A stretch of DNA of 64,000 nucleotides from Phoronis australis (taxonomy: Eukaryota; Animalia; Phoronida): assembly GCA_002633005.1 (NCBI GenBank), contig NMRA01000172.1, forward strand, positions 486,348 through 550,347. The letters run 5' to 3'. The translations under genes were made by a program, and so were the position numbers. This document shows, piece by piece, positions 9,467 to 35,919 of this stretch. Below the pieces are notes generated by a model. It had not been told where the DNA came from and did not search any database. It saw only the letters and a list, made by a program, of their open reading frames with translations. Each line of letters starts with the position of its first letter. Position 1 is the stretch's first letter.

Positions 9467-9953
9467 ATATGACTAGCAAAAATTTAAACCGCTGATTATC
9501 AAACACTTTATGCTCTGAAAAACGTTGCGTTCGCAGTGAGATCTAAGTTATTATTTCTTGCATTTATTGCGTCACATATACAAATGTTTGACCGCACAAA
9601 CAAGACTAAACGATCATCATAGTTAAGAACGCGCACAGAGTGGCATTGTGCCGGAAAACGTGAAGTTTGAGATATTTATTTTGCACTATATCGTGACCAA
9701 AATTTTGTCGAGATTTACTCAGGTTGCGATGGCATTGGAGAAGAATCCATTGCTATGCAAACATGGAATCTCTTTGATCAGCTGCGGATCGTGTTCAACC
9801 AGAGAGAATATGCTTCATTTCTTGAGAAAAGGTGAACAACGTCAGGGTGAAATGAACAGTGTACGACTGCTGGACCAAGTTCTTCAAGACTCCTCTCTTT
9901 CAGTCATGTGTAAAGATGAACTGGTAAAACTTAGATATTTTTGCTGTCGTGAA

Positions 9954-11325: not shown

Positions 11326-14300
11326 TTCGGGATGCCAGCGCTGTGCCTCGTGTCGTCTATCGGTCACGAAGAGAGTGTGAAAAAACTACTTCACGCGGGA
11401 GCTGACGTCAATTGCGTTGTACCCACGGTACTTTGAATTATACATTTTGAAAACTCCTAAATCGGCAAGCATGATTATTGCTTTCTGGAAGTTTGACGGA
11501 TGAGACCAAAGACCACTCACCTCGAACCACAGAATTTCTGTTGTAAGAGAATGAGAAAGTGATTGGTGCGCAAATTGTACATGTAAATAAAACACAGTGA
11601 AATTATAGTGAATCTGCAAAAGTTGTCGTTTATAATGTGCCGCTCAGGTACTGCATCTGGAATGTAGTAACTGACAGAACTAGTAATGGTTGAAATCGCC
11701 AAAATAAGTTTTGCACCATTCTATAAGCGTGTAGGACGATTCAAGAGTCTGTTTCACTATAATGTCGCAACTTTAAGACGTTTTTACACATTATCTAAAA
11801 ACCAAAATTTATGACTGGCCCTAGTTGCATGAAAATTATTCGCTGGATAGCAGCAATGACGTCATTACAACCCGTCTCTTGGGTATTGCTGAACACTGCT
11901 TCTGACGTCATGCAGCAATTCAACTTATCCATCATTACTTCTGAAGCTACATGCAACCTGAGCCCTGTATCGTTAATTGCCATTTAGACATTTGTTAACG
12001 AAACGTCCTAAAGCTTCTAAATTCTATTGAAACATGCATCAGGTCTTCAAGCTGCTGCCCTCAGAGGCCACTCGTATTATTACGATCTTAATGTCTTGCG
12101 TCATAACTTAAAATTAAGGGGGTGCGGATTTTTGAATTTTGATATTTTGTACTTTGTCTTTGGCCTACAAAATTTGTATTTCACGGAATTAGGTTTGCCG
12201 GCACCTCTGGTAACAAAATAAAGTTTACACGGGTCACTAAAAAATCAACTTTTATTTAAAGCAACGATTGAAAATTTTTGACAACGGGTTAAATTCCTTG
12301 TTTTGTGATACTGTTATTTTTAACGGGCTCACTTATATTCCTAGTTTACCGATATTTTGCGTCAGCGAAGGAATAAAAGTATTTTTTCTCGATTCTGACA
12401 CAAACGACTAAAAAAGGTTTCTAAAGATTACGACTATAAAGGTCGTAAGTTTTTTAGGTATACGACTCCCAGATCACCAAATGAAAACCCAAGTCACACT
12501 TAGCGAGTACATTTACATCTAAGGTGGGATTGATCAGTTGCGGCATTTTTACATTTTAGGACAAGAACTCTCCGTTGATTTTGGCGACACAGGGAAGGCA
12601 TATTGAACTTATCAAGCTACTGATTACAGCCGGAGCTAACCTAGCGCATTGCAACAACGTGCGTATGAAGTCATTTCCATGTAGCGGGAGACGTAGAGAA
12701 TTTCATTGGAGATTGACTAGAGCGTGACTCTCAACCATCTCTTTCATTTTGTTGTCATCGGCACTCTTAACAGAAGCGTTGACCGCAGATTCAGAATAGT
12801 TACTTGACATGCTGTAATATCAAGACAATTGCGAAATATCAAGAAGAGATTAATTCAAACACTGAAACTATCAAACTCAAGTTATAAACGTTGCGTCCGT
12901 ATCTCACGGACATCAACTCAGGGGCGAATCCAGAATTTTGAGTTAAGGGGGGGCAGGACAGAGTATTGGCCAGGATTTTGTCTGCCAGACTTTGGCACCC
13001 CCGAACTGCCAAATGGAATCTGGCAGAATTCTAGGTGGGCGATGGCCCCCTTGGCCCCCCTCTAAATCTGCCACTATGTATTGACCTCCAAATGAAGTTC
13101 TGGTGCGGTAGATCAGCGGTGGTTCTGTCCCATCTCAGACCACCATCTTATTGAGAGCTGGTTTCTCCACGCGTTCATGTAGTGTCCCCTTAACCTCTTC
13201 ACTAAAACAGTAGTCTCCCCAATCCGAGATAACGACATCCTTGGTTTCAAAATCGTGTCTTGCTCTGTTGAGATGACTACGTGCAGTCGTATGTGGTCCC
13301 ATAATTGTGACCATGAATTGCTGACACACAATCACGTTCAAGTACTGTTTCGTATCAGCAACATATCTGTCTGAACACTGAGACGCCGTGCGCTACACAC
13401 CATATACTCCATGAGACTTGATCCCCTTCGGAGCTCAATGCAAGCCCAAATTGTCGCAACAACCCAAATTGTCACAACTTCGAATTGCGACAATTTGGGT
13501 CAGCGCTGCCCATGATGAATTCACCAGTTGGGTTTTTCTTGTAATACAAACTGTTTAAATGTCCTCTACTCACACCGAAGAACCGAAATAATAACTGTCA
13601 CCGAGGAGTCCATCAAGAGACCCAAGTCAACTATCTTCAACAGAAAGCATGCCTAACAACATTAGAAATACCAAACCTGGAAAACCCCATCTAGAGCCTT
13701 TCGTCAAGATATGGAATACCTACCGTTATGAAATTTGTCTTACACTCTTCCTTCTATAGTACATGTGATTTCAGTGCCATATACGACAGCGGTATTTAGT
13801 CTAAAGCTGGTAATGTAACTAAGGAGCCATAAAGAGAGAGACCATTTCTGTGCTACGGTAGCACGGTGCATGATATTTCAACTTCCTCACATATGGGACA
13901 GGAACATCGCCGATTATATACAAAATAACTTGATTTTTTGTGAATTTATGTAGAACGCAACCCTGTCAAGAACGACTGTAGATAATGAGCACATTAACCT
14001 GCGGATGTGCTTCGTTTGTTGAAATTTATGTTACACCCGAGTATCCAAGCAGACGTGACGCGACTGAGATGAGTGTACATGTAAAAAATGAATCAATTAC
14101 TGTATTGCATTTATTTCTTCGGTTAAGTAACGTTTCATTGACTGGCGTACGTTAGCATTTTGTTACTTTCTTGATGTTGTTGAGAAAGTGTGATTTCTCG
14201 TTTACAGGAGGGCAACAATGCTTTCATGGTGGCTGTGTCGACTGGAGATGCACATCCCGTCAACCTCCTTTGGCAGTATAGGAGTAACTTTAATATTAAC

Positions 14301-17300
14301 CAAGAGAACGTGGTATGGTACAGTGTGCGCTATTAGACTTGTCAAGCGATATGCACAAACGAAACCCTTCGTTAACATTGTGCACCTGCTGGTGTATATT
14401 ATTCAGCAACACTCATGATATTTTATGTCCTAGTAAACATATAGACTTAATTCACGCCGACAGGAGGCGCGTTTCAAAACGAGGCTTGCTACGATAGCTC
14501 AGTTGACTTATTGGCATAGCTGTATGCTGCGCTGCTTGAACGGCTGTTTTACAATTCCTAAGGACGTTGAGATTCGGAAGCGTTGGGTAGTTGACATACG
14601 CCGCGACGAAGGAAAATATGTGCGTGTAAAATTTTTAAATGTTTTCGAAAAGTTAGATCATATTTTAATTGTCGTATCTCGGTTGCCGAGCATCACGACA
14701 ACGACCGGAGAATTTCCAGCCAGCCAGAAACTACGGATTGAAACATGATGCATTTTTCTTTCAAAGAAGGACAGGGCTCTCAATCCCTCGATTTTGGGGA
14801 CAACCATTTCCCTAATTCCCTCTCAAAAATATTGAAAACAATCATGTGAAATTCCTCCCACGAGGCCTAAAAATTCCCCTAGTGATTGAAAAGTTCTCTC
14901 CGGAGTTCAAATCACCTGTAACCATACAGGTGACAATTTGAAAGAGCACAAAATGCTACTTCAGACAGAGCCTATGAGAGCTTGCAACAGGACGGGGGTG
15001 CTATATGGTGATCGGGAGGTAGATTTCCTCCTCACAAGGCGAAAAAGTTCCCCTCTCAGAAGTCACAGACACTTTTTCATCTCATTTCGATGACCGAGGC
15101 CCATGAAGAAACATAATAACCATGCTTGCTCTGTCCAGTTATCTGAAATTGAGTCACTAAAACGAGGTTATGCTTTAGATGAACGATTTAGGTGCTTTAA
15201 TTTTAAAATTCAACTTCGCCCAGATTGATATTTGAAACCTAACACATGAAATAGACGTTCATGTAAGAATTATTAAAACCAAGAAAGCAGAATCGATGAT
15301 CAAATAATTTTTATTTTCAATTACGAGCCTGGTTTTTTGTTTTGATAAAAATATATTTAATAACATCAATTATTCTTTCAGGTCAATGACAAATCAACTG
15401 TTAGTCCCGGTAGTCCCCACCTCACCAGGCCCTAGGCTGTAGTTGATGTTAATATTCTTTATCAACAAATTAAACCAAATGTGTCTAATCGCACATGAAA
15501 GCAAAATGCGATGAGCCACCACTGTCGAATAGTCAAATCGTCAACAATACGAGCAGATGACTTGGTTCGCGTAGAAAGCATTTTTATCAACAAATTTACA
15601 AGAAAAAGCTTAACCCTGCATTCAGCATGATACCTAATCCGTAACATTGCGATCACCTCAATTTGGTCATGTTTACTTTTCATGCTTCGAACCTTGTTTT
15701 CCGAAAAAACTTATACCCTTTCGTCAGACAATTCTTTGGTACATTGACTTGTTCTCTATTTTTCTACGTCTCTGCGGTTAATTATCGACACATTTTAAAG
15801 ATTTAATACCAAGCTTGAACTCGAAAGACCGGCCATTTAACTCACGCAATGTCAACTTCTGCTTTGTTTATCGTAGTAAGCCTCGCTTTGGATTTTAATG
15901 TCCGCCGAGTGAATTAGGTCTATAGTGTGCCATCATTATCAAGACTACTTTAACGTTCACAAATGCAGGCCTGGCGTGCGTTCAGTAGCGCTTGGACCTA
16001 AGCTAGTACCCAAGCTAAAACCTAGCCAAAGTCACGTGCTTTCATTTGAAATACACGGCAATATCTCACGTAATCTCGCGAAGTCTTACTTTTTAGCGAG
16101 ATTCTAGCGTTACTGGCTATCCAGAGAATACTAGACTCATTTCCGCAATGGTACTTTTCCTCTCAAATGGCTGGTATTTTTATAGCTTTATGTTCCTCCT
16201 ATTCACATGTGCGGATTTCAGTCACTGGCAGGTCATTTTCAACCTGGAGAATAATTGGTCGTATGACTTTTGTTCGCACATACAAAGAACGTTCACCTCC
16301 GAGGGTAATTTGAGGCAAGAGAAATACCCGAATTGTTCCGAATGGCTACAGTATTTTTTCCATGTCTGGCTCATCCCGAACCTTCTATGGCGTTTTCGTT
16401 ACTTCAAATTATCGAGGAGACGCTGTGAATTGAGTTCCAGACTCCCCGTTTGGGAGACCGGGGTTTGAATCCTGGCTTTACTGGCTGACAGTCGAGCATT
16501 GCACAGGGGGGTTTCCTAATCCTCTGAGCCCACTCTTACTATTGAATGTATGCAAGGGAAAGCATGAGAACCTGGATATAATGGCAACGCGATTTTTGGG
16601 ATTGTGTTAATATTAAATTTATCAAGCCTCGGAAATGTTACATATTTGTGCATGTGCGAACCAAAACTAGAGAAAAGATTTGGTCAAAATAAAAATCACG
16701 CCAAACCACCTAGGTTTGAAAAGAAATGTGCGACGTCATTCTCATTCCGTTGTCCACCTGCTGATGTAGTCTAATCTTATTTCACGTTTTGTACTTTTAT
16801 AACAGAGATGTTTCGGAGCATTTTTTTCATTTTGACAATCGCATGAGTGCTGTCACTCTGATTGAAGCTCTCACATGTGGAGATAGGGAATATTACCGTG
16901 GGATAATCGGAGGCTACGAAAATACCCGATGTATTCGAGATGGGTCTGGCAAGATCAACAAGTCTCATGCACATTACAAGCTAGCTTGGCAGTCAGAAGT
17001 GTAGTTCGTCACGGAACTGACCGTTTGGCCCTCTGCGTTTCATCTTTACAGAAAGGCTATACGGCTATTCATCTGGCAGCTGAGCGACAATGGGAGAGTT
17101 GCGTGAACATGCTGATATGTGGTGGAGCTGATAAACAGTGGCAAACATACGTAGGTACCATCGCCGACCTCACTCTACAATTCATAATATCCACTCAGTT
17201 CGAGTAAATATCCAATTTAAGTTGACTAAATACTAGACTCGGAAAAGCATCTACTTGCAATAAATGATGTAATCCGAGTAGCCGTCCGTAGACCATGTTT

Positions 17301-20300
17301 TTGCGGGTAAATGAAGACCTGTGAAAAGGCCGCGTTTCGTGAGTATGCTCGGCTGCTTACTAGCCTATCCTAGCAAAATTTTAGCCACTGATGTGCTTTG
17401 TTGGTCAGGTTAAAACGTCGAATTACGGTGTTGAATTCATTAACCGAGGGATATAATTCACTGTTTCCCTTCCACGAGCGAAGAGTTTTTGTCGCACGTG
17501 CAAACTAACTATTGTGCCTATGGAACTCATCTCCACTGAGCTGCAGTGAAAATGGTTTCGACTAGAAATAGCTGGTGAAAGGGTTTGAGTTCAGAGAAAA
17601 ACTTTAAGAGCCAGCCATCCTAGATATTCCCCAGTTCAATGTGTAGAAAAAACAACCTTTTCAAGCCTAAACGTTATACCAAAGTGTAACTTCAAAGGGT
17701 GATCATCGAACATGAACATCCAATTTGCTATGCCTTTTACATTATTTGGCCCCGCTACATGAATCAGGGACAGACTTTGACAGAAAACTTGGTGGTACAG
17801 TAAAAGCATGCTAATAATTAAGTACAAATACTCTGTCGCATATCCAAATTTTTTTGTATGAAGATGTACCCGTATCGTTGTAGGACGGATCCACTGCATT
17901 AATTATAGCAACCAAAAAAGGTGACAAAAAGACAGTGGAGCGCCTCCTGGCGGCGTCTGCAAGTGTTGACATAGAGGATAACGTAAGTGTCTTTGTATAA
18001 CAGAACGTATTTCATCACACATGTACGTGGGTAAACGCACAAACGATGATTTCTTTTCCAATTATGATAAGATTATGTTGTGTTAATTATTGCAAAAATG
18101 TATTTCAGGAGAGTGCAACCGCTCTGTGTTATGCCATAAGAGATAAAAAGTGCGACCTTGTCGATTTGTTGATGAAAAAATTATTTTTCTCCAAAGACGA
18201 CAAGGAAAGTTACGTGAGAGTAAGTGTCGTTGCTTTATTTTTATTTTTCAGTCCGTTTTAGATTTAATAACATTACACTGTTTTTAGTCAATGTGGAGCG
18301 TGTTTGTTCAATAAATTAGTAAACAATAACCTTGCATATTTGACAGAGACGCATTGACCTCTTGAGGACGAAGACAGTGTCCAACGGCACAATCAGTAAA
18401 GAAGATTTCTTCGATTCCATACTTATCCCCGTTATTCAAGAGCTGTGCAAACATCAAGAATGTCGAGATATCCTGTTTCGGATACGTGCTATGTTCCAGC
18501 TGATACCGTTCCTAGACACGTATCTCACCAACGAAGAGGTTGCGCAAAAGACCTTCATCACCTTATGCATGTTGATGTACGTGTACTCGAGCACGCCCGA
18601 TTCCAGATTTGTAGACCAGTTTGTCAGTGCCAAAGGACACGAACTAGTCCTAAAAAGTCTTTATTTCTACGACGCCAGCAACAGTTACGATCCCAAGATA
18701 ATTTTCACTGCCTTTATGCCAATCATCAGCATCTATGCTACACTAGAAGGTCGAGAATGGCTGAAGAAGAATTATTACAAGCTGTCCCAATACTCCACGA
18801 TTTTCGAAGCCGGGTGTGACATCTCATCCTTTCTGGACTGTTGCCGCGGTAAATTCATGGGAACATGGCAGAGATTTAAGTGGCACTTCACCAAAACTTC
18901 GCAAGAACAGGCTGAGCTTGTCTGTGCAGAGTTATTAGAGAATGAAGAAAGGGAAAAGGCAAGGGAGCGCGCGAAAAAAGAAAAACGGCGGGAAAAGAGA
19001 AAGAATCGAAAAATTCAACAACGTGCAGAGCGTGAATATGCTGAAAAACTTGTAGACGGAGATGATTCATTGTTCGATGACGTCAACAATTCTCCCGATT
19101 CTCAAAATTGTAGTTACACGCCGAAAGGAAGCGTCATAGCAGACTTTCTCAGTGGCGTTCAGCAGAAAGTGAAAGGTCTGCTAGGGAAAATACCAGCGTC
19201 TCCACCGCGTGATCAGAGGGAGAATGTAGACGACATACAGAAGGTTCAAGAACAGCATGCAAAGAAGAAACGAAGGAAGAAGAACAAACCGAAGAGAAGC
19301 GAAGAGGATGAAGTTTTGTTGAACCACTGTGCAATAAATCCTGTATTCGACAGGATACAGTATTCGCCAAAGGTGATAAAGTCACGTACAACTAAAGTAC
19401 CAAACCTTCCCCGAGTAGAAGACATTATAGAGCCTTGTGAAAATGTTAGTGGTGATGCGCCTGAGGTACTAGGGGCTATGGCTACGCCGGAGAGGGTTGG
19501 TATCAATTGTAGCAAATTGAGCTTGCCTTGCCTTGTGGCCGGACCAGAACATAAGGTCACGAAAGATTTACTTGAATGTAATCTCACAAACAGCGGTCTT
19601 GTGCCGTTAGACACGTCGTCACCAGTGAAGTCGTACGAACAATATGGTTCAGTAAATATGAACGAAAACGCAAGAGGATACCGTAGCCAGGCTCCTCCCA
19701 GAGTTAACATATCGCTAGATGACGTAACGGAAGATAGTATGGCTGGACTGTCGCCCATAGGAACACCCAGGGAGGTAGACACAAACGGCAGTCTAACCAG
19801 CAGCTCTATAACTCCTGAGAAGTACGGCATGAGTCCTCGACCAAAACATGGCAAACATATCGTTCGTTTTAAGGAAATGAAATGCGATGGTCCACCATCT
19901 TCCTACGCGTTTTGTGCAGTAGGCGAGTCTCGTGTGGGCAGTATGTCACCCAGAGGTCGAACAGCTACTTGGGCAGAAATAACGAAGAAAGATGCTGTCA
20001 AAACTAGACCATGGAGTGCAACAAATATTAGGTATGGCTCACATGCTTCAAAACTTTCACAACCTGTATTCTTCCAACCAAACGACAATTTTCCTAGATC
20101 AAAGAAGTCAAAAAGACCGCCGCGATTAAGGCCTTCCCAAGACACGAAGTTAGACATTATTTCTCCTACGAAAGACAGTCGAATCGTTAAGTCAACAAAT
20201 GCCGTCGAAGGAAAACCAGCCATTCAAAAAGTGAACCTGCGTGACATGAAGATACCACTTTCTAGTTTCATACCAGATCTTTCGAGACTTAACAATGAGA

Positions 20301-23300
20301 CAGGTGCAGGTGCTGTTGAAGATCGAGCTACAGAAACTGACAACGAACGAAGAAAAGATCGAGAGAATAAGTCATACGAACAGCAACGTGAAAAGTCGGT
20401 AGAAGTGAGTTGCTATCGCATGAAACGAGATGCGCAGAATACTACAATCGAACATGTAGTCGACGTTGACGCAATGGCAGAGGACCCAGACTATGTCCGC
20501 ATGCAGATGGAGGCACTGGATAACTTCAGCAAAGATTATAAAAACCTTAACTTCGTTCAAGATGTTAGCGGCTGGCTGTCGGAAACGTCTGACGGTGACG
20601 TCAGCAGCGAGAATGGTGTAGAGAAGAAAGAAGGCAGCGTTTCTTCAGACGCAGACATGGAAGTTCAACGGATACTTCAGGAAGACGTCATCGTGCACGA
20701 AAATAACCCCATTATCTCACCAGTGACTAAGAGTTACCATAATAAATGCACTGCTCCTCCCGTTTGCTTCTATGATTTTGGCATAAAGACATCTCACGAA
20801 TTTTACGAGTCGGTTACCGGTGACAGAAAGCTTTTCCGCGACACAAATCTTCTCACTGACATTCGGGTGGAAAACATTCCTGTGGCACCAGACGTGGAAT
20901 TTGCTCGGTTGACACCAGATCCTGATGATGGGTTTTCCAATTTGGATAACACGGAGTACATATACTATCCCGGAATGGATCACAAAATGCTGCAGATTAG
21001 AGGACTCTTCCAGAATACGGCCAACAATCGCTTTCACAAACTGATACAAATGCAGTTTGAAGCTGCTAACGAGCGCAAAGTTATTGGCGAGATGTCATCG
21101 ATGGGCAGGTTCTACCAGTCGCGCTTCAGTCCTAAACAATTTGTTCCACCTCCTGCGGGAAGTCTTTGGTCCAACTGTGGTAATCGGCAGGTGGCAGTAG
21201 GTGTCCCAGCGAGCAACGCAGTGGATTGTCGCGACAATGACTCGTCCATAACGTGGGTTCCTAAAAGTCAGCGTTGGAGATCAATCTTCAAGGAGTTGAC
21301 GGCTCTGTCGATTGAAACACACACTAAAGTTGGTCCCATATTGTTTCACGCCCACAATCAACGCTTCGGTCTAACCAGCAGGTATCGCCAGTAAGAATGA
21401 TTACCTTATCTAGATTTGAAAGTACCACGAACCTGATATGAGTTGAGTTTCGTAGACGTAAGAATCTTGCGAAGAAAGCAAGTGTAATCACGTGCTTTGC
21501 TTGTGGTACGTGACAAAATCTCACGATGTTTTGCACGATATATTGCGTTTTCACGAGGTTCTTGTGACTACGGAACGCACGCTTAACCTATGTCAAACAC
21601 TGCTTTTTGATTTACACCACTTACCATTGTATAATTGCCCCTTACTCAAAGTAAAAATGAATTGTAGTTCGCCATTACTCAAGTCCAACTTAAAAAAGCA
21701 TAGTTTGCACCCCATTTTACCATAGAGGTCTCTGCTAACAGTCTAAGCGTGTGCATTACCGTAACAGTACCACGGAGCTTTCGTTGAGATCTCAGTCGTA
21801 GACAACCCTAAGTCATTCAGATCAACCAAATATGTATTGAGCGAATGGCGGAGATCGGAAACAAGCAAGGAACTGCGTCACTAATTACCCAATGAGTGAT
21901 CGTAAACTCCGAGTGCTTTTAACAGACCCAAAGAAGAATTACCTCAGAGAGCTCAGTAACAATAAAATAAATTAAAGTTGAACTTGTAGGTTTGTTCCTT
22001 TTCTGTGGTTGCTTGCCAAAGTAGTTAGAAGCACATCTTGTAGCGACGATGTGAATATGAAGAAGGCTGGAAATTATCGAATGTTTATAAAAACGGGTTA
22101 TGTGGCGAAATTGATCCACTGAAACTAATTGAAGCGTGTCCAGTTAATATTTCACGTGGTGCTGGGGATTAACACTGCGCACATAGCCCACGAGGTACGT
22201 CATTGATGCAAAAGGTCACCTGTTTTCATATTTTTGTTTCATTTCACATTTACAAATTGTCAGTGAATACAACTGCACTTTCTTTAGAGTAGATTATGTT
22301 AAAATAGCATTGTCGTTTAGTTCTTGTTATGCATTAGCACAGTTAGGAGCATGCAAATACATCTTTAAATATAATTTGCGCTCTTACCGAAAGAGGCCTC
22401 GGGAGATTATCGAGAATAGAGTTTAATACGGTGTCTTGACCTTGAGAGTCATTTATGAGCCGAGCACGAATTGAAACGAGCTATCAATTCTTGCCGAGCC
22501 CTACATGTACAATCGCTTCCAACCTAAGTATGGGACGAATGAGACCGTTGCATAACCGAAAAAGGTGTTGATCATCAATTATTTGGTAGCTTTTGACAGT
22601 AGCTAAGTGTGTTCGTGGAAGCTCAAATAATACGAATCTTCAGTTACTGTTGAATCCGTCCGTTTTCACATACACTTTGAATGCTTAACATCTCATTATT
22701 TCTCTACTTTTCATCTGAAGCAATCACCGTGTTCTCGTCGGATGAGTCATGTTAAAAGCTTGTTATCTGTTGCTCTGACTGATATTTTTCATGTCAGCCA
22801 AATTATGTCTTTCGAAATTCTTGTCTTTCCAGCAACCATTCCTCAGCTTCCTCTTATCTCGGTATATTGGAGGACGGTACAGAAATCTCAGTGCGGCGCA
22901 TGAGTCTGGATGACTACGCTCATTTAAAGAAAAACTTACCTACCATGCTCTATCCAGCAGTCAGACACGAGTCGTTGGCCAAGTTTCTGGTATATATATT
23001 TACTCTTGATGCTGTTCCAGAAGTTAAACACTGTAGTTTTTTGTGGACCTAGATTCAGACTATGGCTAAAAGTACATGAGAACACGAAATATCAACAATC
23101 GACTAATGTGTCCAGGAAAAGGCTCAAAAACCTTTTTACTTTGCGAATAACATTTTTAAAGTGAAGCACCTTTCCGAAACGATAAAATGTAGGCCAAAAC
23201 AGCATAGTTAGTTATGGTCTTGTGTTTTCTTTGTTAAAAAATTGCACAAAAGCACGCCAGCAAGAGTAAGCAAGGCTTGAAACACCACGGTTTGCCAAGC

Positions 23301-26300
23301 GAGTAAAAGCAAATCATTTTGGTAGTCTAGGGTGGCTTTTCTTTTCTGAAAAATGAAGCAACAAAAGAAAAACCGACATACGGACTCAATTTTCAAAAAC
23401 TAAATACGGGTCAGAGCCTACTGTGTTGTTGGCCTTATTACTACTATATCTGTTATTTTTGCTCGAGAACGTCTCATTGATCGAAATGCTCTATGTGTCA
23501 TTTCGATGTTTCAGAGTTTGAGACACCCACCCTTGCCTTAATTACATGAACAATTAATGTTTTAGTTTACAATTGGCAGAAGCAATGTTGGTCGAATAAT
23601 AGTGGCACGGCAGATAATTACAAAAATCACAAGAATCATTCACGTTGTCATGCAACCAACAAAATTGGTCTGTGATTCCACAAAAATGGTGCACCTGGTC
23701 CAGCCATGCAGCTCAAGCACACCCGGTGTACTGCAAAAGACACTAGGCCACCTTACTGCCTACTTTGCTCTAAATGCACATTCAAAATATAGGCCATTTC
23801 CGGTAGCAATCTGGCGTGTTCTTACACAGTTTGGTTGATACAAAAGTACATTAATTTTGTATGCATAATCCTCAATTCTAAGTGTCACACAATATTCTGC
23901 ACCTTGATAGCATGTTTTTCAAATTTTACAAAAGGCATTTAGATACTGAGGACAGTAGTGCACAATGAAGCTTGAGTGTTTCTGACTACATCTGGCACCA
24001 TTAATTGAGTAAAATGGACTGCTGTGTTCAAGCTCCGCCGGTATCATAAAAGCGGCTGAAGATATCAATGAATTACACGACTGTTATGTAACTGCTGTGC
24101 TAGCTTCAGGGAAGGTGCTGCTACTTTGGGACATGCAAAGAAATGGGAGATGTCTCTCAGTCAGAATCTATATTGTGATGTCGGTGTTTGGAAAGACCAT
24201 AAGAAGGAAGCTGCATGAGAATGGGTTAGGCAGAGCAAGCACTGCTATTTTATAACGGCCAAGCACACAGCAGGAGTTGCTCAGAGGTCTGTCCACCACT
24301 GCCAGCATGGGCGATTAGATCGAATTCCAACTTCTACGGCGACTACTATAACATCTTTCCTAGGAACAAGCATTCCTTTGTTCCGACACCCTGGTCAGTA
24401 GAATGAGGACATGAACAATGCCAGTTGACAGGCAACAACACGAAGACAGTTCAAAGCGTCCCGCCTCTTTTACGAATGTCAGACCTGTACACTTCTATGA
24501 AGAAAGTCCACTTGCGCTTCAACTCCTGAACTTTTCCTGGTTTAAAATATTTCCAACAAATGTGCACATATACACAAGTATTGAAAACGCCACACTTACA
24601 AGTAAGCCTGGACGTCTGTAATTTTTCAGCATGCAACAGAAGACGATCATTATGGATACCTGGCTATCGAACTGTGTGAATACAATCTCGAAGAGTACAT
24701 ACAACACATGAGGTCGCGTAACGAGTACGATTTCCGGATTGCGAAGCGACTGGTGTGGCAGTTCTTGAAAGCTTTACAGTACTTGCATGAAACTTGCCTC
24801 GTAGCTCAAAGAAATTTAAAGGTAAGCATGTCAAGAAGGCCAGGACAGCCACTCTGCACGATTTTATTTGAAACCACTATGGCGTTTACAAGCCTCATAA
24901 GCAAGTGTTTTCTTACGTGAGCTGTATGTTGTTTGCTTCAATATGCTTACTTATTAAGTTAATATTGGACTGCACTATCTAGCCTCAGAACATACTACTC
25001 GACACTCTGAACAAGGTGCGACTGACCGACTACAACATTAGCCGCATGACGGAGAGCGGGCAGACGATTCTTTACGACAAGGGTGTGGGTGAGTCTATCT
25101 TAGATATTACACGAAGAAATAGTTTGAATTATTGGAACTAAATCAAGACTCGGTTGTTAATTATTGTCAAAGCCTTGAAGGATTCTTGGCCTTGATACTC
25201 CTTAATAATTGTAGAGAATGTCGTGCACGAATCGGCTTCCAGTCCTCATAGCTTTTGAAACAAAATATAGGCGTCAGAAAATTTTTGTCAGAAATCGCGA
25301 ATGCTGAAAAGTGTGCTATCATTAACAAAAATTTTGCACTCAGATAAATTTGATTGACCACAAATAACTGTCAAACAATTTTTACAATATAATTTTGACC
25401 TTTTCCGGCAAGTACAAATACTATTCAAACTCATGACGCGTTCAGATGTCAAGTTTAAAAAAAGATCGATACGTCGTCTGACCATAAAGCCGATCAGATG
25501 CTCACAATTACAGTTCAGAAATGTCTCGTATGCGGCGAGTAATTAGCGTAACATCATGTACAAAATGGCAATTACTTGAGCGCCACCATGGTTGAACAGA
25601 AACTAGCCGCTAATCTGGTCAAAGGGATGTACGGCTCTCACGGTAAGGCAGTAAATCAGGTTGGACGATTAGAAGGCAGCTCAGCCATCTGACGCGTTCA
25701 CATGTGATTTTTTTCAGACGACAGATAAATCTCTGATACGGTTTGTTGCATGCTGCTGCCTGACCGGACGGCATGTGAAAGCCTTGTACGTGTACGTAGA
25801 TGACCAGTACAAACATAAATAAAAACCTTTGATTCGTTTGATCTCAAGTTGGTTGCAGTTGACCTGTTGAACGCGATCTCATTCACAAAACTCATCGATT
25901 TCATGACAGGCTGTAATTGCTGGCGACCAAAAGAGTGCGTGACAAGTGGCCAAGCTTGGACGGGGACGGCATCCGTAGTAAACTACACGACAAAGTCAGA
26001 TATCCAGGTAACGGACTTAACTCATGAAAGTAAATCAGACATACATGTAAAGAGCTTACATACATGTACAACTCGAGAACAACTCTACGTCGAGAAACAA
26101 CCAAAAATTAATACGATGTTATATCAGGCACTGATACATTCCCCATTAAATCCACGAGAAAGGGAAAATAAGTGGTTCCAACAAAACCAGGCAGTTGTGC
26201 TTTACTAACCTGGGATGATGTTTGACGGAGTGATGCCCGTGAACGCAAATAATTCAATTTGGAATGAAATAAGTACCCTCCATTACTGCGATAAGACGCC

Positions 26301-29300
26301 GCATGGCAGATATATAGTTAAAAAATCAACTCGGACTCGTGAAGACAGAAAGGGTACTTTACTCATAGATTGATCAAAGTAGGTTTTTGGATTTACACTA
26401 TACGGTTTGAATTCGTGAAATACCCATCCACGCCAGGTTGCCGGAATGCTTGTGCACTACATTTTGACGGGAGGAGTGCACCCATACGGTGACAACACGT
26501 TCGACATAGAGCTGAACATTGCGCGTGGTTGGCCACGATGGCGAAGAATAAATGAAGAGGCCAACGACCTCATACGGTGGATGTTGTCAAATGAAGAGAA
26601 AGAGCGACCCAACATCACACAGACTTTAAGGTACTCATGCATCTATGAAAAACTGTACATGTAAATAAACATACATCTAGTTTTTTTCGACCATAACTTG
26701 TTTTTGTGAAAAAGAGCAATTTAGAAATTAGAGGACCATCTTTTGATCGATAGTGTACAGCTGCCTTACTTGACGTCATCGAGATTAGCTTTGGTTAAAC
26801 TCATTAACTACTGCTTACAATTTGAGTTGTAATTCATTGAACAAAGCAATCAATTACAATCTGTTACTGGCCTTTGCAGACACCCTTTTTTCTGGCCAGA
26901 GCTCAAACGAATGGACTTCTTACATACAGTGGGAAAAGAAATCCTGAGCGAATTTCAGTACGGGTAGGTAACTTGTCCAATGCATCTGGAATATTAATTG
27001 AATTAATTAGACCTTCGGTAGTACGAAACTCAGACGAAAGTTATGGCATTTTGATTTTCTCGTACCTGATTTTATTCATAGAGTATGTCCGTTCAGGTGG
27101 CAAAATGGTTCACCAAACTTACAGACGTTCAAACCGCAGACGGCTCTGACTAAAGCACTCTTCAAATTATTGTCGGGCCAGTAAAAATAGACCTTTGCCG
27201 GAAGATCTAGATTTAATAGAAAAACACGCGTGTAACTAATTGTTGAAAGACGTTTGGCATACAAAGCATTCAAAAATCTGTCACGGCTCTTTGCAAAGAA
27301 GAGAATATTTATGATCGAAATATGTTGAGAATATATACACAAAACGTGCCGAGAGTAGCGTACATGAAATAATATCCCACGAGACATTATTCCCCGTATC
27401 GACCTCGACTTTCGGTCTCGGTTCGTACGCGGAATAAGGCCGAGTGGGATATTACTTCTTGAACGCCAATCGAGGTACGTTTTGTATTTATCCCATGCGC
27501 TTCGAATTCCTAAGTTTCTTACATTTTTTTCGGCAGATTTTTCAAATACTTCACCCAGCCTGTTCAAATGGCGGATCACATCCTAATATGTATGTACTTG
27601 CGCGTTAGGCTGCAAGTTTTCTCTGGTAAAAGAAACAGTTTTAAATGTAACGATTTATTTCTTGAAAAGAGGTAAGAAAGATGAAAACAACGGCAACTTT
27701 GCAGTGAATGTGTAACATCTCTTGGAGCTGGTTAAAAAACAAAATTTGATATTTTAGTTTCCTAGGAATCGGCGACTGAGTTGCAGACGATATAATATTC
27801 AGCAATTGAAAACTGAGACATAAGTGTCTCATAATTAACAGTTTTGTTCCAGATTTTACGTTTAGGGCCTGGTTGCATGTCGAGTGTTATTTACACTGTT
27901 GCAACTGTATTACTTTAAACTATGTTCGGAAAGTTTGAGGATCGAACCGGCTGAAGACGTCGAGTCGACATTGACCTACCTTTTGAACTTTCCATGTCAG
28001 AGGTCACTGTTGAAGTGGTGTGGGAGGTGAATACGGAAAACTTTATTACATGGCCGTATTTCCCTCGACAGATTCAACGCGTATGGGATAAATCTCTGTA
28101 TTTTGACGATTAGTCCGAACTTGTCTTTTAGCCCCGCTACTAACAGCGTCATCAGTGAGAGGCTGAACAATGTCTCCTTCCAGGCGGTGAGCAGAGACTG
28201 GGTGAGTTGAGTGAGAGGGTCTTGGGAACATGGGTGTCGGCTGAGTTTGTGTAGTGTTTAGTTTTGACCTAAGTGGGAATTGATGCGTGAGTCTATGTTG
28301 CCAGTTACTAGCTTATCAAGTTATATGCAAAGACGTGGAGGAACCCAACGACTATGTCCAACAGCTTTGGGTACAGTATTTTCATCACTCATAAGGGAGA
28401 GTTGAAATATTGAAAAAGGGGCGGGTTCGTCCTGCTTTTAGTGTTTACACTGACAGAGTTAAAAAAACATTTTCTAATAACTTTCATACTCTAGATGTCG
28501 CAAATCGACGAACTGTTGCTGGAAGAGATGCGCACGCACCGTAACTACAAAAACAACGTGGCCGATTTCCTGCGATTCATTGTCAACTGCCAGACACAAT
28601 ACAAAAACCTGTAAGTCGTTCGCCTCCATTACACGCAGTTATTTGCTAATTGATTCGTATGCTTTTTTGTACGTCATTTGTCATCTAATTCATTTTTGTA
28701 TATAAATCAACGTCAGGAGTACTTTGTACCCCTATATAGTTGTCAACATTGAGTTCTGGAAGTAAAAAATTGCCACGCTCATCTGATCTTGAATTATTGC
28801 CGAATAAGCCGGTTTAATTTATTGTACTATTTAGAATAAGGGTGGACCCCTTTCCTCAACAACAGAATAATGAACTAATGTAGTCAAACAATAATTAAAT
28901 ACAGGTAACAAAGCAACAATCAAACAGGTTAAGAATTTAGATAAAAAATGACGAAGGATTATGAAAATAGACTAAGGGACGTTAAGTTAAATAAAGAAAC
29001 GATGCTATTAATAGTGAAAGTATTTACGGTATTGAAAAATGGCATACTTAAGACAGAAATAGGTGTAAAAATGGGCAAATAAATTGCAGTCTCTTTTTAA
29101 TATTAAATTTGAAAGCATTAATTCAATCGGACCGTTTAATTTCTGGGCGAAGGGAATTCCATATTGCAGCACTGGCATTAAATATAAGATCTCTTGCCGG
29201 TCTCGGTTTTAATCATTTTAAATGAAACATTACCAGCAACGGATAAACGTGTAGAGTTTACAGCTTGACTGCTACTAAATTTGCGTCTGAGATATCTGTT

Positions 29301-31050
29301 TATGCCACAGGCAGAGAATTTTTTTTTTATTTTCATCAATCTAAGCTTGGAGCACAAGTCGTCGACCCAGGTGCCCCTAATTCTAGTACCCATGATAGCC
29401 CTGGTGGCTCTATTTTGGATTACCTGGAATTTTGCTTACAAGTGTGTCGCTGGTGTGTCCCCAAACCGGTAAACAATAATATGGGGCTGAATAATAGAAT
29501 GGTAGAGTATCTTAAGACTGCTGAGATAAAGAAATTTACCTCGTGGACGTTTTAAAGTACGCCGATTTTCTTTGACATTTTATTTGTGATGTAATCTATG
29601 TGCATAGGTTGGGATCTAAAATAAGGCCCTAGCACTGAAACTTGTCGACACTCTCAATATGGAACCGTTGATATAAAGACACAATTTCTGTCGTTTAAAT
29701 TACTAGTGGGTTCCCAACTGCATAGCCTTGGTGCCACAAAGGTTAAGAATAAGTCTATTTTGAACCAGCCAGTCATGGATAAGGGCAAGCTCATCGTTGA
29801 GAGAAGTTTTAAGTTCATTATTGATCCAGCTGTGGACATAATTACAGTGTCATCGCTGTTGTGGAGGACAGGGGAGATCGTAAACAAAAATAGTGAATAA
29901 TTGTGTTCCCAGAATGGAACCCTCGAGGAGGTACGCCTTGATAACTGTTGAGTAGTCGGAGAGAATATCACCGTATTTGGTAGCGTGTTTGCAGTCGTAT
30001 ACGTAGTTTTTAAACCAAAGGAGTTCGTTATCGTTAACTCCATTGGACTGTAGTTTCCTTAAAAGGATACCATGGTCCACAGTGTCAAAGGCTTTCTTAA
30101 GGTCAACAAAACAGCACCTGTAAGCCTCCCCTGGTCCATATTATGGAAGATAAAGTCAGTAGCGTAAATTTTTGTAGTCAGTGTAGAATGCAGGGAGTGG
30201 AAACCGGACTGGTGTCGATAGAAGGGAATTTTCCTCCACGAATTAGTAAACTTGCTTTTGGACACACCTTTCAAGAATTTTTGGACGTTGCTTGGAAGAC
30301 CGATATTGGCCATTATTTTTGCAACTGGACTTGTCAGTTGTCACCGTCTTCAAAAACAGGAGTAAAGATCGCCATCTTCCAATCACTGTGGCCGTGTCTA
30401 AACTCAAATTTATGAAGGGTCTCGGCTATTAGCTGAGAGACCAGTTTCAGTACAGTTTGGCATAAATGCTTATCGGTGTCACCGGTAACTCACGTCACAG
30501 ACAATTTGTTCATGTGCCATCTTTAAATCTGCAATTTAGGGTTGGCCAACCCACTTTAACTATGTTCAAAGCGCTTTCTTGGGTGGCTGATAGTTTCGTT
30601 GTTTTGTTGTTACCGGAACTAGAATCTTATTGTGTTAGGGAATATCATGAGAATGGACTAAATCGATTTTCATTTTTAGCCAGCTAAATAGCCAAACGTA
30701 GTTATAGAAGTGTATGCGGAACAGTGGAACCTCGTAGTTCAGAAAAAATAGAGTTTTAACTTTGAAATGTGTGTGTGGGTATCCTACATTGCCTGATGAC
30801 TAACACCTGCCAGAATATTCTCGACCTCGCCACCTAGTATCCCTTGCTCGACGTCTCATCTTCTGGCAGACGAAAGACAGGAGAAACTTTCCACCTTAGT
30901 ATATTTTTCAGATCCCCCACGAGTAAATCTATACTCGGCGAAGATCGGCTGTATTTCCTGCGGAGTTTTCCCGCGCTTTTCATGTCAGTCTACCGCGTCG
31001 TCAAGGGAAGTGAGTGGGCAATGAAAATGAGCTTCAGCAAGTTTTTCTAA
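11326..31050 (+). CDS. RNase L/IRE1-like protein: ankyrin repeats + helical/coiled-coil region + long linker + pseudokinase + KEN (pseudo-RNase) domain, about 1600 aa
   Basis: Sixteen AG/GT exons join in phase (4791 nt to the TAA at 31048-31050). Ankyrin exons: 11326-11427, 12560-12658, 14208-14312, 17052-17150, 17884-17982, 18109-18219. Large exon: 18347-21381. Kinase: 22833-22989 (YLGILEDGTEISVRRM), 24630-24821 (YLAIELCEYNLEEYI...LQYLH...QRNLK), 24983-25088 (PQNILL...LTDYNISR), 25910-26007 (WRPKE...KSDIQ), 26437-26630 (VAGMLVHYILTGGVHPYG...ERP). KEN: 26880-26963 (HPFFW), 28147-28201, 28495-28610 (YKNNVADFLRFIVN), 30912-31050 (YFLRSFPALFMSVY). First exon/start codon not identified. Confidence 0.88.
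12919..13075. mobile_element. Short MITE-like element with imperfect terminal inverted repeats
   Basis: Begins caggggcgaatccag and ends ctaaatctgccacta, with internal G-run/C-run symmetry. A related end (gtagatctgccactg) occurs near 37971-37985. Confidence 0.5.
13135..13290 (-). mobile_element. Penelope-like retroelement GIY-YIG C-terminal remnant
   Basis: Translation HLNRARHDFETKDVVISDWGDYCFSEEVKGTLHERVEKPALNK resembles the remembered PLE consensus H.F....V.IL..E..WFERGVKEAI...EKP.LN. Confidence 0.45.
14520..14630 (+). mobile_element. THAP-domain fragment (DNA transposon remnant) in an intron
   Basis: CFTIPKDVEIRKRWVVDIRRDEG matches the THAP core F..P.....R..W...I.R. No complete ORF. Confidence 0.55.
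15971..16100 (+). repeat. Interspersed repeat, with an inverted copy at 36698-36822
   Basis: ctggcgtgcgttcagtag...ggcaatatctcacgtaatctc...tttttagcgag is the approximate reverse complement of 36698-36822. Confidence 0.8.
29100..30560 (-). mobile_element. 5'-truncated, decayed LINE (CR1/L2-type) reverse transcriptase in the last intron of the KEN gene
   Basis: Frameshifted RT motifs on the minus strand: HQSGFHSLHSTLT, GRLTGAVL.DLKKAFDTVDHGILLRKLQSNGV, GSILGTQLFTIFVYDLP, and C-terminal GKRSY...WNSL. Confidence 0.85.
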
Positions 31051-31478: not shown

Positions 31479-32641
31479 TTAATCAGTTTGCTTTTCACAG
31501 ATGTATCCCATGCCAATCGAACAGTCACGCTGTATCCATGCGCCAGTCGTCGCGTTGAGCGCTACGCAGACATACTGTTGGCCTTCACTTCTGTTCGCGC
31601 CCCGAAGTTCTGAAGCATCTGAAACATATTATCTCACCATTGAAAATCCGCAAGTCATTTTAAAGAAAATCGAGAGTTCATTTTATATAAGAATCGTGGT
31701 GTTTTCCAACCCACAAATCTAGTAACAGGTACAAGTTTAGTAATTGCAACAATCTCGCCAGTTTGATACCGTTGAAGTTAATTGCGTTTCTCGATAGAGT
31801 TTCAAGTTTAAACTGATCTCAAAATTGCATGATGTTATTTCATGAAAGGGGTAAAAATGAAACGTCTAATCTGCCAATTTGACTTTCTTGCTACCGAAAT
31901 AAAACACCGGTTATGATTTTGTTTCATCCAAGTTAACAAGATAATCTTCTTTACTACTAATTTGTAGAAGTTGCCGTTACCGTTTGCCCAGTTAGTGAAG
32001 ATAACGTCATCACCAGTGTTGTCCCATTTAAATTGACTACTGCTGCTTGTTTTGCTTGCTCCAATCCACAAGCTCGCCACCTTCAGGCTTTCTTCGGCAT
32101 TACTGACCATCGCCTTTAGAGTGGCCTTCAAATATCTTTGCTCTTTTCCATTGTTGATGTTAACCAAGTATCCCCCTGATTTCATACAATAAATTGATGC
32201 CAGTGACCTGTCCGAGACTGAATCAACAATCATGTAACACGACCCGGAAAAGAGGGTGTACCCCCAAGAACAGGTTGGTGCCGGTGTTGTGGGTATGACT
32301 GCTTGTAGCGAGTTGGCCGCTACCTGACACACGCGTCTGGTTTGATGACAGCACTTCTTGTTCCTTGCCATGCTCAAAGACACCCTTCTCTTTATCGTCT
32401 CCAAGCTGTCGCGAACGTAGCTGTGAAATGCATTGAGGTCGCGTTCCATATTCTGTAGTCGTGCGTCAATTTTGGACAGAGCCAGTGCATTCCTTTCGTT
32501 TAGATCTCTTGCTTCTGAGTCTGTCGGCCTAGCCACTGAGTCAGCTTCAGTAATAGGAATTACCTCTGATTTTACTCCGTCATAAAGGAACACAAACACG
32601 ATCCAGAAGGACGACATTCTACCCGCGTTGAACAGTTTCAT
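31479..32641 (-). CDS. Secreted C-type lectin domain protein (signal peptide, coiled coil, CTLD), copy A
   Basis: Exon 31981-32641 (hydrophobic leader FWIVFVFLY; CSWGYTLFSGSCY; C...GGYLVNI...EQ; LWIGA; F.NW) joins in phase 1 to exon 31479-31618 (CVALNATTGAWIQRDCSIGMGYICEKQTD*). Confidence 0.9.
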
Positions 32642-34834: not shown

Positions 34835-35919
34835 TTAATCAGTCTGCTTTTCACATATGTACCCCATGCCAGTGGAACAGTCACGTTGGATCCATTCGCC
34901 ATTCGTAGCGTTAAGCGCCACACAGATATTGTTCCTGTTCGCTCTAGGAAGTTCAGAGGCACCTGAAACAAATATACACACCATTTAATGCGGCAGTCGT
35001 CAACAAAACTGATATTTAACTTCGACTACAAAATAGCCTACATAACTGTCGCTCTAACACTGGTCTCGACTTGCAGGTCTTTTACTCAGAGATGACTGTG
35101 TGTTTTGGACTTAATTTCAACGAACAGATAGTTCGCCATTGTTCGATACCATGCTCGCTGAAAAAACTGACGTGCCGTGACAAGTCATTTTGTGGAGCCT
35201 AATATCGAACTGTTAGATCTTTGTAACCCAAAAATGGTCTTGTTTATAATAATTACTGTACCTTTTGCCCAGTTAGTGAAGGTTACGTTATCGCCAGTTC
35301 TGTCCCACTTAAATTCACCGTCTCTGCTCGTTTTGCTTGCTCCAATCCACAAGCTTGTTGCTTTCAGTGTTTCTTCGGAATTTCTGGCCATTGCTTTTAT
35401 GGTAGTTTTCAAAAATCTTTGCTCTCCTCGCTCGTTTACGTTTACCAGGTGACCCCCTTCCTTCATACACATAATGGATCCTAGCTGCCAGCTTGAGTAG
35501 GTATCAACGATTTTATAGCAGGAACCAGAGAAAAGGGTGTACCCCCAATAATTACAAGTTGGTGCCGGTGTTGTGGGTATGACTGCTTGTAGCGAGTTGG
35601 CCGCTTCCTGACACACGCGTCTGGTTTGGTGACAGCACTTCTTGTTCCTTGCCATGCTCAAAGACACCTTTCTCTTTATCGTCTCCAAGCTGTCGCGAAC
35701 GTAGCTGTGAAATGCACTGAGGTCGCGTTCCATATTCTGTAGTCGTGCGCCAATATCGGATTGTGGCAATGCATTCATTTCGTGTACTTCTTTTGCTTGT
35801 ATCTGTGTCGGTCTGGTCACTGAATCAGCTTCAGCAATAGGAATTACCTCTGAATTTATTACGCCATTAAGGCACACAAACGCGATCCAGAAACACATTC
35901 TTCTGCTAAACATTTCCAT
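34835..35919 (-). CDS. Secreted C-type lectin domain protein, copy B
   Basis: Exon 35262-35919 plus exon 34835-34962 (CVALNATNGEWIQRDCSTGMGYICEKQTD*). Same intron position and phase as copy A. Confidence 0.9.

Follow-up and report, generated by a model that had tools for sequence, protein, structure and literature searches.

Does an invertebrate gene that places ankyrin repeats ahead of a kinase fold and a KEN domain encode a nucleotide-activated nuclease of the RNase L kind, or a protein of another sort? The question is raised by a locus of Phoronis australis, for which an earlier note had proposed a cytosolic RNase L sister family that could take part in an invertebrate nucleotide-signal or antiviral pathway. 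Here, the gene, its transcripts, its domains, and its relatives are examined, starting from a window of 64,000 nucleotides (the whole stretch of DNA analyzed). The features located in it are listed in Table 1.

Gene model, transcripts, and domains

The 16 exons that the earlier note had joined in phase between 11326 and 31050 join into one stop-free reading frame, with GT..AG at their intron boundaries, and a further upstream exon, from the ATG at 9729 to 9923, brings the full gene model to 17 exons and 1665 aa. A paralog is arranged head-to-head with it and runs past the left end of the window. The RNA consisted of raw reads from three runs labelled as the same species, with the gene covered by X1 and X2, and with run X3 and contig set X4 covering repeats only. 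At least 11 of the 16 joins (exon 2 to 3, 7 to 8, and all from 8 to 9 through 16 to 17) were directly seen in stranded RNA as GT..AG joints among the 15 of 24 joints listed. One more join, exon 1 to 2, was recovered through 22 (X1) and 25 (X2) reads whose loose ends at 11325 exactly match 9893-9922, a string unique in the window. Joins 3 to 4, 4 to 5, 5 to 6, and 6 to 7 are absent among the 15 joints listed of the 24; the bins with their exons have a sense-strand depth of approximately 19-54x (the bin mean put on the exon), and orthologs are co-linear with the gene across all four. Approximately one-third of the reads carry an extra T in the T6 run at 26886-26891 in exon 14.

Table 1. Positions of exons, domains, and motifs of the Phoronis australis gene in the window
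Feature	Position	Strand	Evidence or remark
Exon 1, 65-aa N-terminal leader	9729..9923	+	Read loose ends; in frame
Exon 2, ankyrin repeat 1	11326..11427	+	Pfam Ank 6e-5; exon 3 join, 12+39 reads
Exon 3, ankyrin repeat 2	12560..12658	+	Pfam Ank 1.5e-5
Exon 4, ankyrin repeat 3	14208..14309	+	Family profile 2e-13; Owenia ortholog closely similar
Exon 5, ankyrin repeat 4	17052..17150	+	Pfam Ank 7.6e-6
Exon 6, ankyrin repeat 5	17884..17982	+	Pfam Ank 3.9e-6
Exon 7, ankyrin repeat 6 (degenerate)	18109..18219	+	Family profile 1e-4; exon 8 join, 16+14 reads
Exon 8, 3035 nt	18347..21381	+	Exon 9 joins: 67+66 reads (major), 19+18 (minor)
Predicted armadillo-like helical solenoid, then long helix (aa 270-494)	18347..19021	+	AlphaFold2, VIA, profile
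Putative internal bidirectional promoter	19037..19480	.	Antisense read ends; sense depth step
T-W-A-E-I-T-K-K, RIH-like linker motif	19967..19990	+	Resembles RACK1-interacting helix
W-x-P-x-S-x-x-W pre-kinase motif	21254..21277	+	Common to RNase L
Exon 9, kinase N-lobe	22833..22989	+	Beta-3 Lys>Arg at 22894-22896; without Gly-rich loop
Exon 10, kinase	24630..24821	+	Pfam Pkinase; HRD>QRN at 24807-24815
Exon 11, kinase	24983..25088	+	Pfam Pkinase; DFG>DYN
Exon 12, kinase	25910..26007	+	RNA joints; family profile
Exon 13, kinase C-lobe	26437..26630	+	RNA joints; Pfam Pkinase
Exon 14, kinase end and KEN start	26880..26963	+	RNA joints
Exon 15, KEN	28132..28201	+	RNA joints
Exon 16, KEN active-site region	28495..28610	+	Pfam Ribonuc_2-5A
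Exon 17, KEN end and stop	30912..31050	+	RNA joints; Pfam Ribonuc_2-5A

RNA depth over the 3' exons is approximately 4-7 times that over the ankyrin exons. Antisense reads terminate at 19037-19052, and sense depth climbs from 20-25x (position 19099) to 101-109x (position 19708), although dips in depth can be filter effects; the first in-frame ATG in good context lies at 19478 (Met647). Exon 8 appears to hold the start of most transcripts, which would then be without ankyrins, and an internal promoter would make a form of approximately 1019 aa, lacking the ankyrin-armadillo head, the main product. By CpG content, no CpG island was found at the putative internal start. Head-less short isoforms are annotated in Physella (P0001, which starts at the helix motif described below) and Centruroides.

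The protein consists of six ankyrin repeats, a predicted armadillo-like domain, a linker of approximately 780 aa, a kinase fold, and a KEN domain. At least six N-terminal ankyrins, a kinase, and a KEN domain had been read from the sequence before, and Pfam Ank, Pkinase, and Ribonuc_2-5A together with a family profile now agree with that reading; every kinase, KEN, and pre-kinase motif quoted then was located. Pfam Ank matched exons 2, 3, 5, and 6 at E values of 4e-6 to 6e-5 and exon 4 weakly (0.06); exon 7 had no Pfam Ank match, its repeat being picked up by the family profile. The ankyrins end at approximately aa 257 and the pre-kinase motif begins at aa 1239, so that some 980 aa separate ankyrins from kinase. 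Exon 8 holds the armadillo-like domain, a coiled coil, the long linker, and the start of the kinase N-lobe, and has a minor donor at 21390. Since the maximum 19-residue hydropathy of the whole protein is 1.29, the protein has no transmembrane helix, and no exon gave a Pfam luminal match, in keeping with the cytosolic location first proposed.

The helical domain was modelled with a pLDDT of 86.8 (AlphaFold2, 31-row alignment), and its single-sequence fold was poor (pLDDT 51.7). Its best VIA match was Armc8 (Z 13.7, rmsd 3.1, 157 aligned), with which many ARM proteins tie, and Foldseek returned nothing for it at E<=0.001. Because VIA Z scores of about 13 are common for helical repeats, the domain is called no more than armadillo-like. 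Exon 8 alone as query found zero homologs. In a profile search the domain was confined to this gene's family among the proteins compared: 32 of the 46 family rows have both it and the ankyrins, and no row outside the family has it.

A family beside RNase L

From 173 proteins, 124 rows with near-full kinase and KEN domains were obtained, and 63 hand-picked representatives were used for a careful tree, after near-duplicates and five long rows without clear placement had been dropped; RNase L sequences are also absent from it. Some rows labelled as, for instance, 'mollusc' or 'insect' received their group name from the clade in which they fall. In this 63-row kinase-KEN tree, the gene falls within a 23-row clade (support 98/95) that splits into arthropods, an annelid with molluscs, and the Phoronis australis gene. 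IRE1-type rows are separate (100/99), and joining the gene to IRE1 was rejected (p-AU 0.0056); it is thus not the ordinary IRE1 ortholog of its genome. The layout found here (six ankyrins, armadillo-like domain, linker, HxN pseudokinase, and KEN) belongs to one clade. Judged by sequence comparison, the gene is a member of an unnamed invertebrate family that is common to molluscs, an annelid, and arthropods and is related to RNase L. The branching of the family follows these animal groups. The guess that such a family might be widespread yet unstudied has held up: a 2023 paper gives one sentence to ankyrin-bearing non-RNase L proteins, and our literature search found no description of the family.

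The kinship with RNase L is supported by the pre-kinase motif, a helix found also in RNase L and not in IRE1. For this motif, the best profile match in the PDB is porcine RNase L (4O1O, E 2e-12), in an alignment running through W-x-P-x-S-x-x-W; alignments to IRE1 begin approximately 20 positions after it, and S-x-x-W occurs in none of the 34 IRE1-type rows. RNase L of jawed vertebrates (PDB 4O1O, 4OAU) is likewise soluble and has the same order of ankyrins, pseudokinase, and KEN, with the motif in its ankyrin-kinase linker, but its ankyrin domain directly adjoins the kinase, and it lacks the armadillo-like domain and long linker of this gene (in 4O1O, the ankyrin match lies at 20-195 and the motif at 317 of a 717-aa chain). 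IRE1 (ERN1/Ire1p) shares the kinase fold and KEN and is the best whole-domain PDB match, the whole kinase-KEN profile scoring 194 bits on IRE1 vs 125 on RNase L, whereas its luminal domain and transmembrane helix have no counterpart here.

Fish, lungfish, amphioxus, hemichordates, Lingula, and cnidarians have uncharacterized soluble kinase-KEN proteins (XP_043924037.1, XP_029932516.1, and XP_013379366.1 are examples) that belong to the same wider clade (99/93) and have the pre-kinase motif. Those of fish and lungfish have ankyrins too; across the group the heads vary (ankyrin, ubiquitin-like, GT4 glycosyltransferase, or tandem kinase-KEN) and none is armadillo-like. Fish proteins with this motif, which the earlier note called 'IRE1-like', do exist, but they fall in a clade of their own, and their active sites are intact. 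Among the 39 soluble rows outside the family, active kinase residues are present in 34 and active KEN residues in 31.

Active sites and linker motifs

In the kinase fold, the beta-3 Lys is replaced by Arg, HRD by QRN, and DFG by DYN, and the Gly-rich loop is absent. Only one of the 46 family rows keeps the catalytic Asp, and none has the full set of Lys, Asp, and Asp. The domain is therefore likely a pseudokinase that has lost activity. The RNase L pseudokinase retains canonical nucleotide-binding residues, in contrast to the gene product, in which the ATP-site Lys and the catalytic-loop Asp are lost.

The KEN domain was matched by Pfam Ribonuc_2-5A in exons 16 and 17 (E 6e-4 each, single exons being below the curated cut-off), and exon 16 alone as query found no KEN structure. 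Read against IRE1, V-N-C-Q-T-Q occupies the R-N-x-x-x-H columns of exon 16: Tyr (28546) and Asn (28585) are kept, and Arg (28582) and His (28597) are replaced by Val and Gln. In IRE1, with its active kinase and Tyr-Arg-Asn-His RNase site, H910 serves as general base, and the phosphate is held by R905/N906 (PMC9472280); RNase L keeps H672 together with Arg-Asn, and its H672A mutant is inactive (PMC10400998). None of the 46 family rows has Arg-Asn-His, against 31 of the 39 soluble rows outside the family and all 34 IRE1-type rows. With KEN His and Arg as well as kinase Lys and Asp replaced, both kinase and RNase activity would have been lost, and the protein is likely a non-cutting scaffold. Thus, the sister-family proposal stands as far as kinship is concerned and is not supported as regards a nucleotide-activated nuclease. 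In molluscs, 25 of 26 rows keep KEN Tyr, Asn, and His, a sign that some chemistry or binding of RNA may persist in them; Arg is absent in all 26, with Tyr in its place in 24, and the annelid KEN lacks Asn and His as well. The Phoronis australis KEN has a His at the IRE1 F889 column, adjoining the active site, which might compensate for the lost catalytic residues.

The linker carries a motif similar to the RACK1-interacting helix (RIH), whose consensus is S-aromatic-A-x-hydrophobic followed by basic residues (bioRxiv 10.64898/2026.08.26.747346), with Thr, not Ser, at the first position in Phoronis australis. Among the 28 non-arthropod rows (this gene, the annelid, and molluscs), which are related and hence not independent, a relaxed RIH-like motif occurs in 25 vs 0.4 expected from shuffles and the strict S-aromatic-A-x-hydrophobic form in 8 vs 2.3 expected. 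A RIM-type FPx(L/F) occurs in 24 of these rows, all in the mollusc clade, vs 4.3 expected; in 12 rows the helix motif is followed, at a distance of 31-62 aa, by an acidic FPxL of stricter form. The Phoronis australis linker has no FPxL/F, with FPRS at the corresponding place, and BLAST against ortholog linkers yielded no alignable block. The prediction from these motifs is that a short linker helix docks the gene product on RACK1, a ribosomal protein. In the RIH-like helix and, in molluscs, the RIM-type FPxL/F, the short linker motifs resemble those of the RACK1-binding proteins ZAK-alpha, LARP4, SERBP1, RNF10, and USP10. The helix and FPx(L/F) motifs of the family match the two RACK1-binding motifs of ZAK, LARP4, SERBP1, and RNF10, but the family is unrelated to this group, its motif order is opposite to that of ZAK and LARP4, and binding is demonstrated there and predicted here. 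In arthropod rows, the helix motif (1/18) and FPx(L/F) (2/18) are approximately at chance level, and therefore ribosome docking cannot explain the whole family.

Competing explanations and significance

We see an even chance that this soluble ankyrin/armadillo/linker/kinase-fold/KEN protein is a catalytically dead scaffold with predicted RACK1 docking. Its dead kinase-KEN unit may form dimers, or keep RNA or partner proteins close to the ribosome, and recruitment of other proteins would fall to the ankyrin-armadillo head. A complex prediction for the head (ankyrin plus armadillo) of the Patella ortholog with its kinase-KEN gave no answer (score 0.00). The antiviral or nucleotide effector first envisaged, whose KEN nuclease would be activated once the ankyrins had bound 2-5A or a similar nucleotide, is very doubtful. 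Domain order and the W-x-P-x-S-x-x-W linker are those of RNase L, whose ankyrin-kinase linker participates in 2-5A binding (PMC4718504), OAS genes occur in oyster, limpet, Lingula, and acorn worm (PMC6307210), and family ankyrins retain non-consensus Trp residues. However, KEN His and Arg are replaced in this gene and no family row has Arg-Asn-His, the ATP site kept by RNase L is lost, a long stretch parts the ankyrins from the kinase, the ankyrin exons appear in a minority of transcripts, and a non-vertebrate-type OASb failed to activate RNase L in yeast (PMC10400998). 2-5A sensing by the gene product is unsupported.

It is unlikely that the family is a ribosome-docked nuclease with an altered site (Tyr-Asn-His without Arg) that functions in molluscs and has degenerated or been remodelled in Phoronis australis and arthropods. 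The mollusc residues described above, alongside both RACK1-type motifs, would suit such an enzyme, as would the exon 14 frameshift, which would remove KEN as if it were dispensable in Phoronis australis; nevertheless, the Arg missing from every mollusc-clade row is the one for the scissile phosphate, the annelid site is eroded further, and the conserved His may be structural. It is quite unlikely that the protein has no part at the ribosome and instead pairs, as a decoy or allosteric partner, with IRE1 or with active soluble kinase-KEN paralogs so as to tune them. In favor of this, the fold is retained in both domains with its chemistry lost, fish, lungfish, amphioxus, Lingula, and cnidarians have active soluble relatives, kinase-KEN proteins work in dimeric form (PMC4536996), and arthropod members without linker motifs would fit, but the conserved linker motifs are left unexplained. 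That the locus comprises two separate genes (ankyrin and kinase-KEN), or an ordinary IRE1 ortholog, is highly improbable. The deeper 3' exons and the four ankyrin joins absent among the 15 of 24 joints listed could point to two genes, yet exon 8 is a single open frame from armadillo-like domain to kinase motif, read-joined on both sides, and the complete layout recurs in 32 of 46 relatives; an IRE1 ortholog is contradicted by the missing transmembrane helix and by the tree.

A bolder and rather unlikely extension is that the family is an ancient cousin of RNase L tied to the ribosome through its RACK1 motifs, that its mollusc form, with Tyr-Asn-His retained, would sense stalls or cut mRNA upon activation by the ribosome, and that RNase L arose from the soluble W-x-P-x-S-x-x-W kinase-KEN lineage, perhaps with ankyrins already present, well before jawed vertebrates. 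A conserved, unnamed animal protein family is defined next to RNase L, and the W-x-P-x-S-x-x-W marker links RNase L with a broad group of soluble kinase-KEN proteins and not directly with IRE1. The family is likely a double pseudoenzyme maintained in molluscs, an annelid, and arthropods, and its RACK1-type motifs open a ribosome role to cheap and direct testing. The soluble relatives with intact active sites may be better candidates for the missing RNase L-like effector of invertebrates and ray-finned fish.

Gene structure and family

The Phoronis gene, a + strand gene at 9729-31050 whose product combines ankyrin repeats, an armadillo-like domain, a linker, a kinase and a KEN domain, gives an open frame with GT..AG introns when its exons are joined by coordinates. 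All 16 exons named in an earlier note are present and in frame, but one additional 5' exon (9729-9923), which brings the product to 1665 aa, had been missed. At least 11 of the 16 joins were visible as + strand joints in two stranded RNA runs bearing the same species label, and the join of exons 1 and 2 was represented by loose read ends identical to 9893-9922 (22 and 25 reads); the joints listed for these runs do not include the four in the ankyrin part (3>4 to 6>7), over which orthologs are co-linear. Coverage by a third RNA run and a contig set was confined to intronic repeats. Pfam, run exon by exon, located Ank, Pkinase and Ribonuc_2-5A at the expected places in single exons, and the previously claimed lack of a transmembrane helix was upheld (top 19-residue hydropathy, 1.29).

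An exon 13 query matched a snail protein. Searching with the kinase-KEN part of that protein gave 35 hits at E<=1e-10; from a second kinase-KEN search the best 150 representatives were taken. The full layout was found in named gastropods, bivalves, the annelid Owenia, scorpion, tick, cockroach, bugs, beetles and sawfly, nearly all of them annotated as 'uncharacterized'. The Phoronis gene is 31-36% identical to molluscs in kinase-KEN and mostly 32-37% in the head (six ankyrin repeats plus armadillo-like domain). Downstream of the repeats lie a helical domain, a charged helix and a polar linker of ~780 aa. The helical domain, restricted to the family among the compared proteins, gave a model (pLDDT 86.8) nearest to armadillo solenoids (best Z 13.7, with 157 residues aligned at rmsd 3.1 and numerous tied matches), which it resembles as a generic fold.

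In a tree of 63 rows chosen by hand, RNase L not being among them, the family formed a single clade (support 98/95) with three branches, arthropods, annelid plus molluscs, and the Phoronis gene, whose order was left open. A wider soluble kinase-KEN group (99/93) encloses the family and fish, lungfish, amphioxus, hemichordate, Lingula and cnidarian proteins, with IRE1-type rows apart (100/99). A constrained tree making the Phoronis gene an IRE1 member was rejected (p-AU 0.0056); together with the missing transmembrane stretch, this bears out the earlier view that it is not the ordinary IRE1 ortholog.

Kinship with RNase L, as proposed earlier, is supported by W-V-P-K-S-Q-R-W immediately N-terminal to the kinase, despite a higher whole kinase-KEN profile score on IRE1 (194 bits) than on RNase L (125). 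The top match of a six-row pre-kinase profile was porcine RNase L (E 2e-12) through the counterpart W-K-P-Q-S-S-R-W, while IRE1 alignments start about 20 positions further on; S-x-x-W/H/Y occurs in 30/46 family and 32/39 other soluble rows but in none of 34 IRE1-type rows. According to the accessible text of a review, 2-5A binding involves the ankyrin-kinase linker of RNase L (PMC4718504). We found no published description of the family in the literature searched, most subscription journals lying outside its coverage. It may be among the ten clades into which RNase homologs have been divided, in work that also describes the ankyrin repeats of several proteins outside RNase L as likely gained independently (PMC10400998). 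The available part of another study lists no RNase L for oyster, limpet, Lingula or acorn worm (PMC6307210).

Catalytic sites

Catalytic residues were assigned by alignment to human IRE1. In the Phoronis kinase, the beta-3 Lys is replaced by Arg, HRD by QRN and DFG by DYN, and the Gly-rich loop is absent. The KEN domain retains Tyr and Asn, with Val for Arg (IRE1 R905) and Gln for the general-base His (IRE1 H910), and has a His where IRE1 carries F889, a residue lining the active site. The excerpts available describe the roles of IRE1 KEN residues, including H910 (PMC9472280), and the inactive H672A mutant of RNase L (PMC10400998). Judged from aligned residues, the loss is family-wide: KEN Arg-Asn-His is intact in 0/46 family vs 31/39 other soluble rows, and the kinase Asp in 1/46 vs 36/39. 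No read difference at catalytic codons was among the 40 differences listed.

Soluble relatives with diverse heads (P0062, P0042, P0059, P0065, P0074, P0114, P0053, P0148) include ankyrin (fish, lungfish), ubiquitin-like (Lingula), GT4 'conflict' glycosyltransferase (hemichordates) and tandem kinase-KEN (soft coral) forms. Their KEN active sites are mostly intact, hemichordate rows excepted, and the non-hemichordate proteins are better candidates for RNase L-like effectors, notably in ray-finned fish, which are without RNase L.

Transcript forms and neighbourhood

Junction reads number 12-39 in the ankyrin half vs about 66-129 in the 3' half, and sense depth within exon 8 (18347-21381) rises from 20-25x at 19099 to 101-109x at 19708, then stays flat, with no splice into this region among the joints listed. 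Antisense (- strand) RNA crosses 17870-19052 (exons 6-8), ending abruptly at 19037-19052; it is roughly as deep as the sense long transcript. From these patterns we infer a bidirectional promoter within exon 8, whose product would begin at Met647 (19478) and retain linker motif, kinase and KEN while missing the head.

One extra T at 26886-26891, an allele or artefact in about a third of exon 13-14 join reads (50/146, 37/112), would introduce a premature stop at aa 1561, ahead of most of KEN. Splice donors 21381 and 21390, 9 nt apart where the Gly-rich loop is missing, alter three kinase N-lobe residues, the minor form making up about a fifth of reads.

Features neighbouring or lying within the Phoronis gene
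Feature	Position	Strand	Remark
Head-to-head paralog	203-5964	-	single-repeat ankyrin exons and armadillo-like exon
Paralog ankyrin ORFs	5617-5964, 4262-4483, 2493-2852, 2209-2433, 1799-1966	-	one repeat each
Paralog armadillo-like exon	203-997	-	armadillo-like family profile, E 6e-6; identity to Phoronis gene about 24%
Two similar C-type lectin genes, tandem	31838-32686, 35188-35964	-	directly 3' of Phoronis gene
VPS35 exons	about 44400-50650	+	possible synteny marker
Myo-inositol oxygenase exons	55930-60310	-	possible synteny marker
Broken reverse-transcriptase (LINE-like) fragment	29657-30340	-	RVT_1 E 2e-7; last intron of Phoronis gene

The paralog's armadillo-like exon stops past the charged helix, the remainder lying beyond the window's left end. 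Tandem blocks at 3140-4485 and 6392-8529 (96-100% identical, spacing about 660 and 1385 nt, a single N in each), one of which duplicates a paralog ankyrin exon, are possibly assembly artefacts.

Linker motifs and possible mechanism

Two RACK1-binding motifs, RIH (S-aromatic-A-x-hydrophobic, then basic residues in ZAK) and RIM (FPxL/F), have been described from ZAK, LARP4, SERBP1, RNF10 and USP10 (PMC12823453, PMC11565960, bioRxiv 10.64898/2026.08.26.747346); the Phoronis linker has the RIH-like T-W-A-E-I-T-K-K (19967-19990) and lacks a RIM. Among the 28 rows of Phoronis gene, annelid and molluscs, the rest of whose linker is unalignable, 25 have W-[AS]-[DE]-hydrophobic, where shuffled sequences would give 0.4, and 24 have FPx(L/F) (4.3 expected), vs 1/18 and 2/18 arthropod rows; in 12/28 the first motif is followed, 31-62 aa further on, by a stricter acidic FPxL. 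The motif hunt was prompted by the LARP4 site, the relaxed pattern was tuned with sequences already viewed, and the strict RIH pattern is found in 8/28 rows (2.3 expected); ribosome docking is therefore a prediction.

The reading that we favour, at about even chances, is a double-pseudoenzyme scaffold: with kinase and KEN both catalytically dead, the Phoronis protein would be placed on the 40S subunit by a predicted RACK1 contact, the long form adding the ankyrin-armadillo head for protein binding. An altered nuclease, active in molluscs, appears rather unlikely; KEN Tyr, Asn and His persist in 25/26 mollusc rows, but Arg is missing from every one. A decoy partner to IRE1 or active paralogs is unlikely too. 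The RNase L-like, 2-5A-type nuclease effector of the earlier note is quite improbable, as it fails on the active site, where KEN Arg and His are replaced. Two genes, or an IRE1, can be given very little credence, the IRE1 placement being rejected by the constrained tree. The family is an unnamed, conserved and likely dead cousin of RNase L, and its link to the ribosome, as predicted for the scaffold, is testable.
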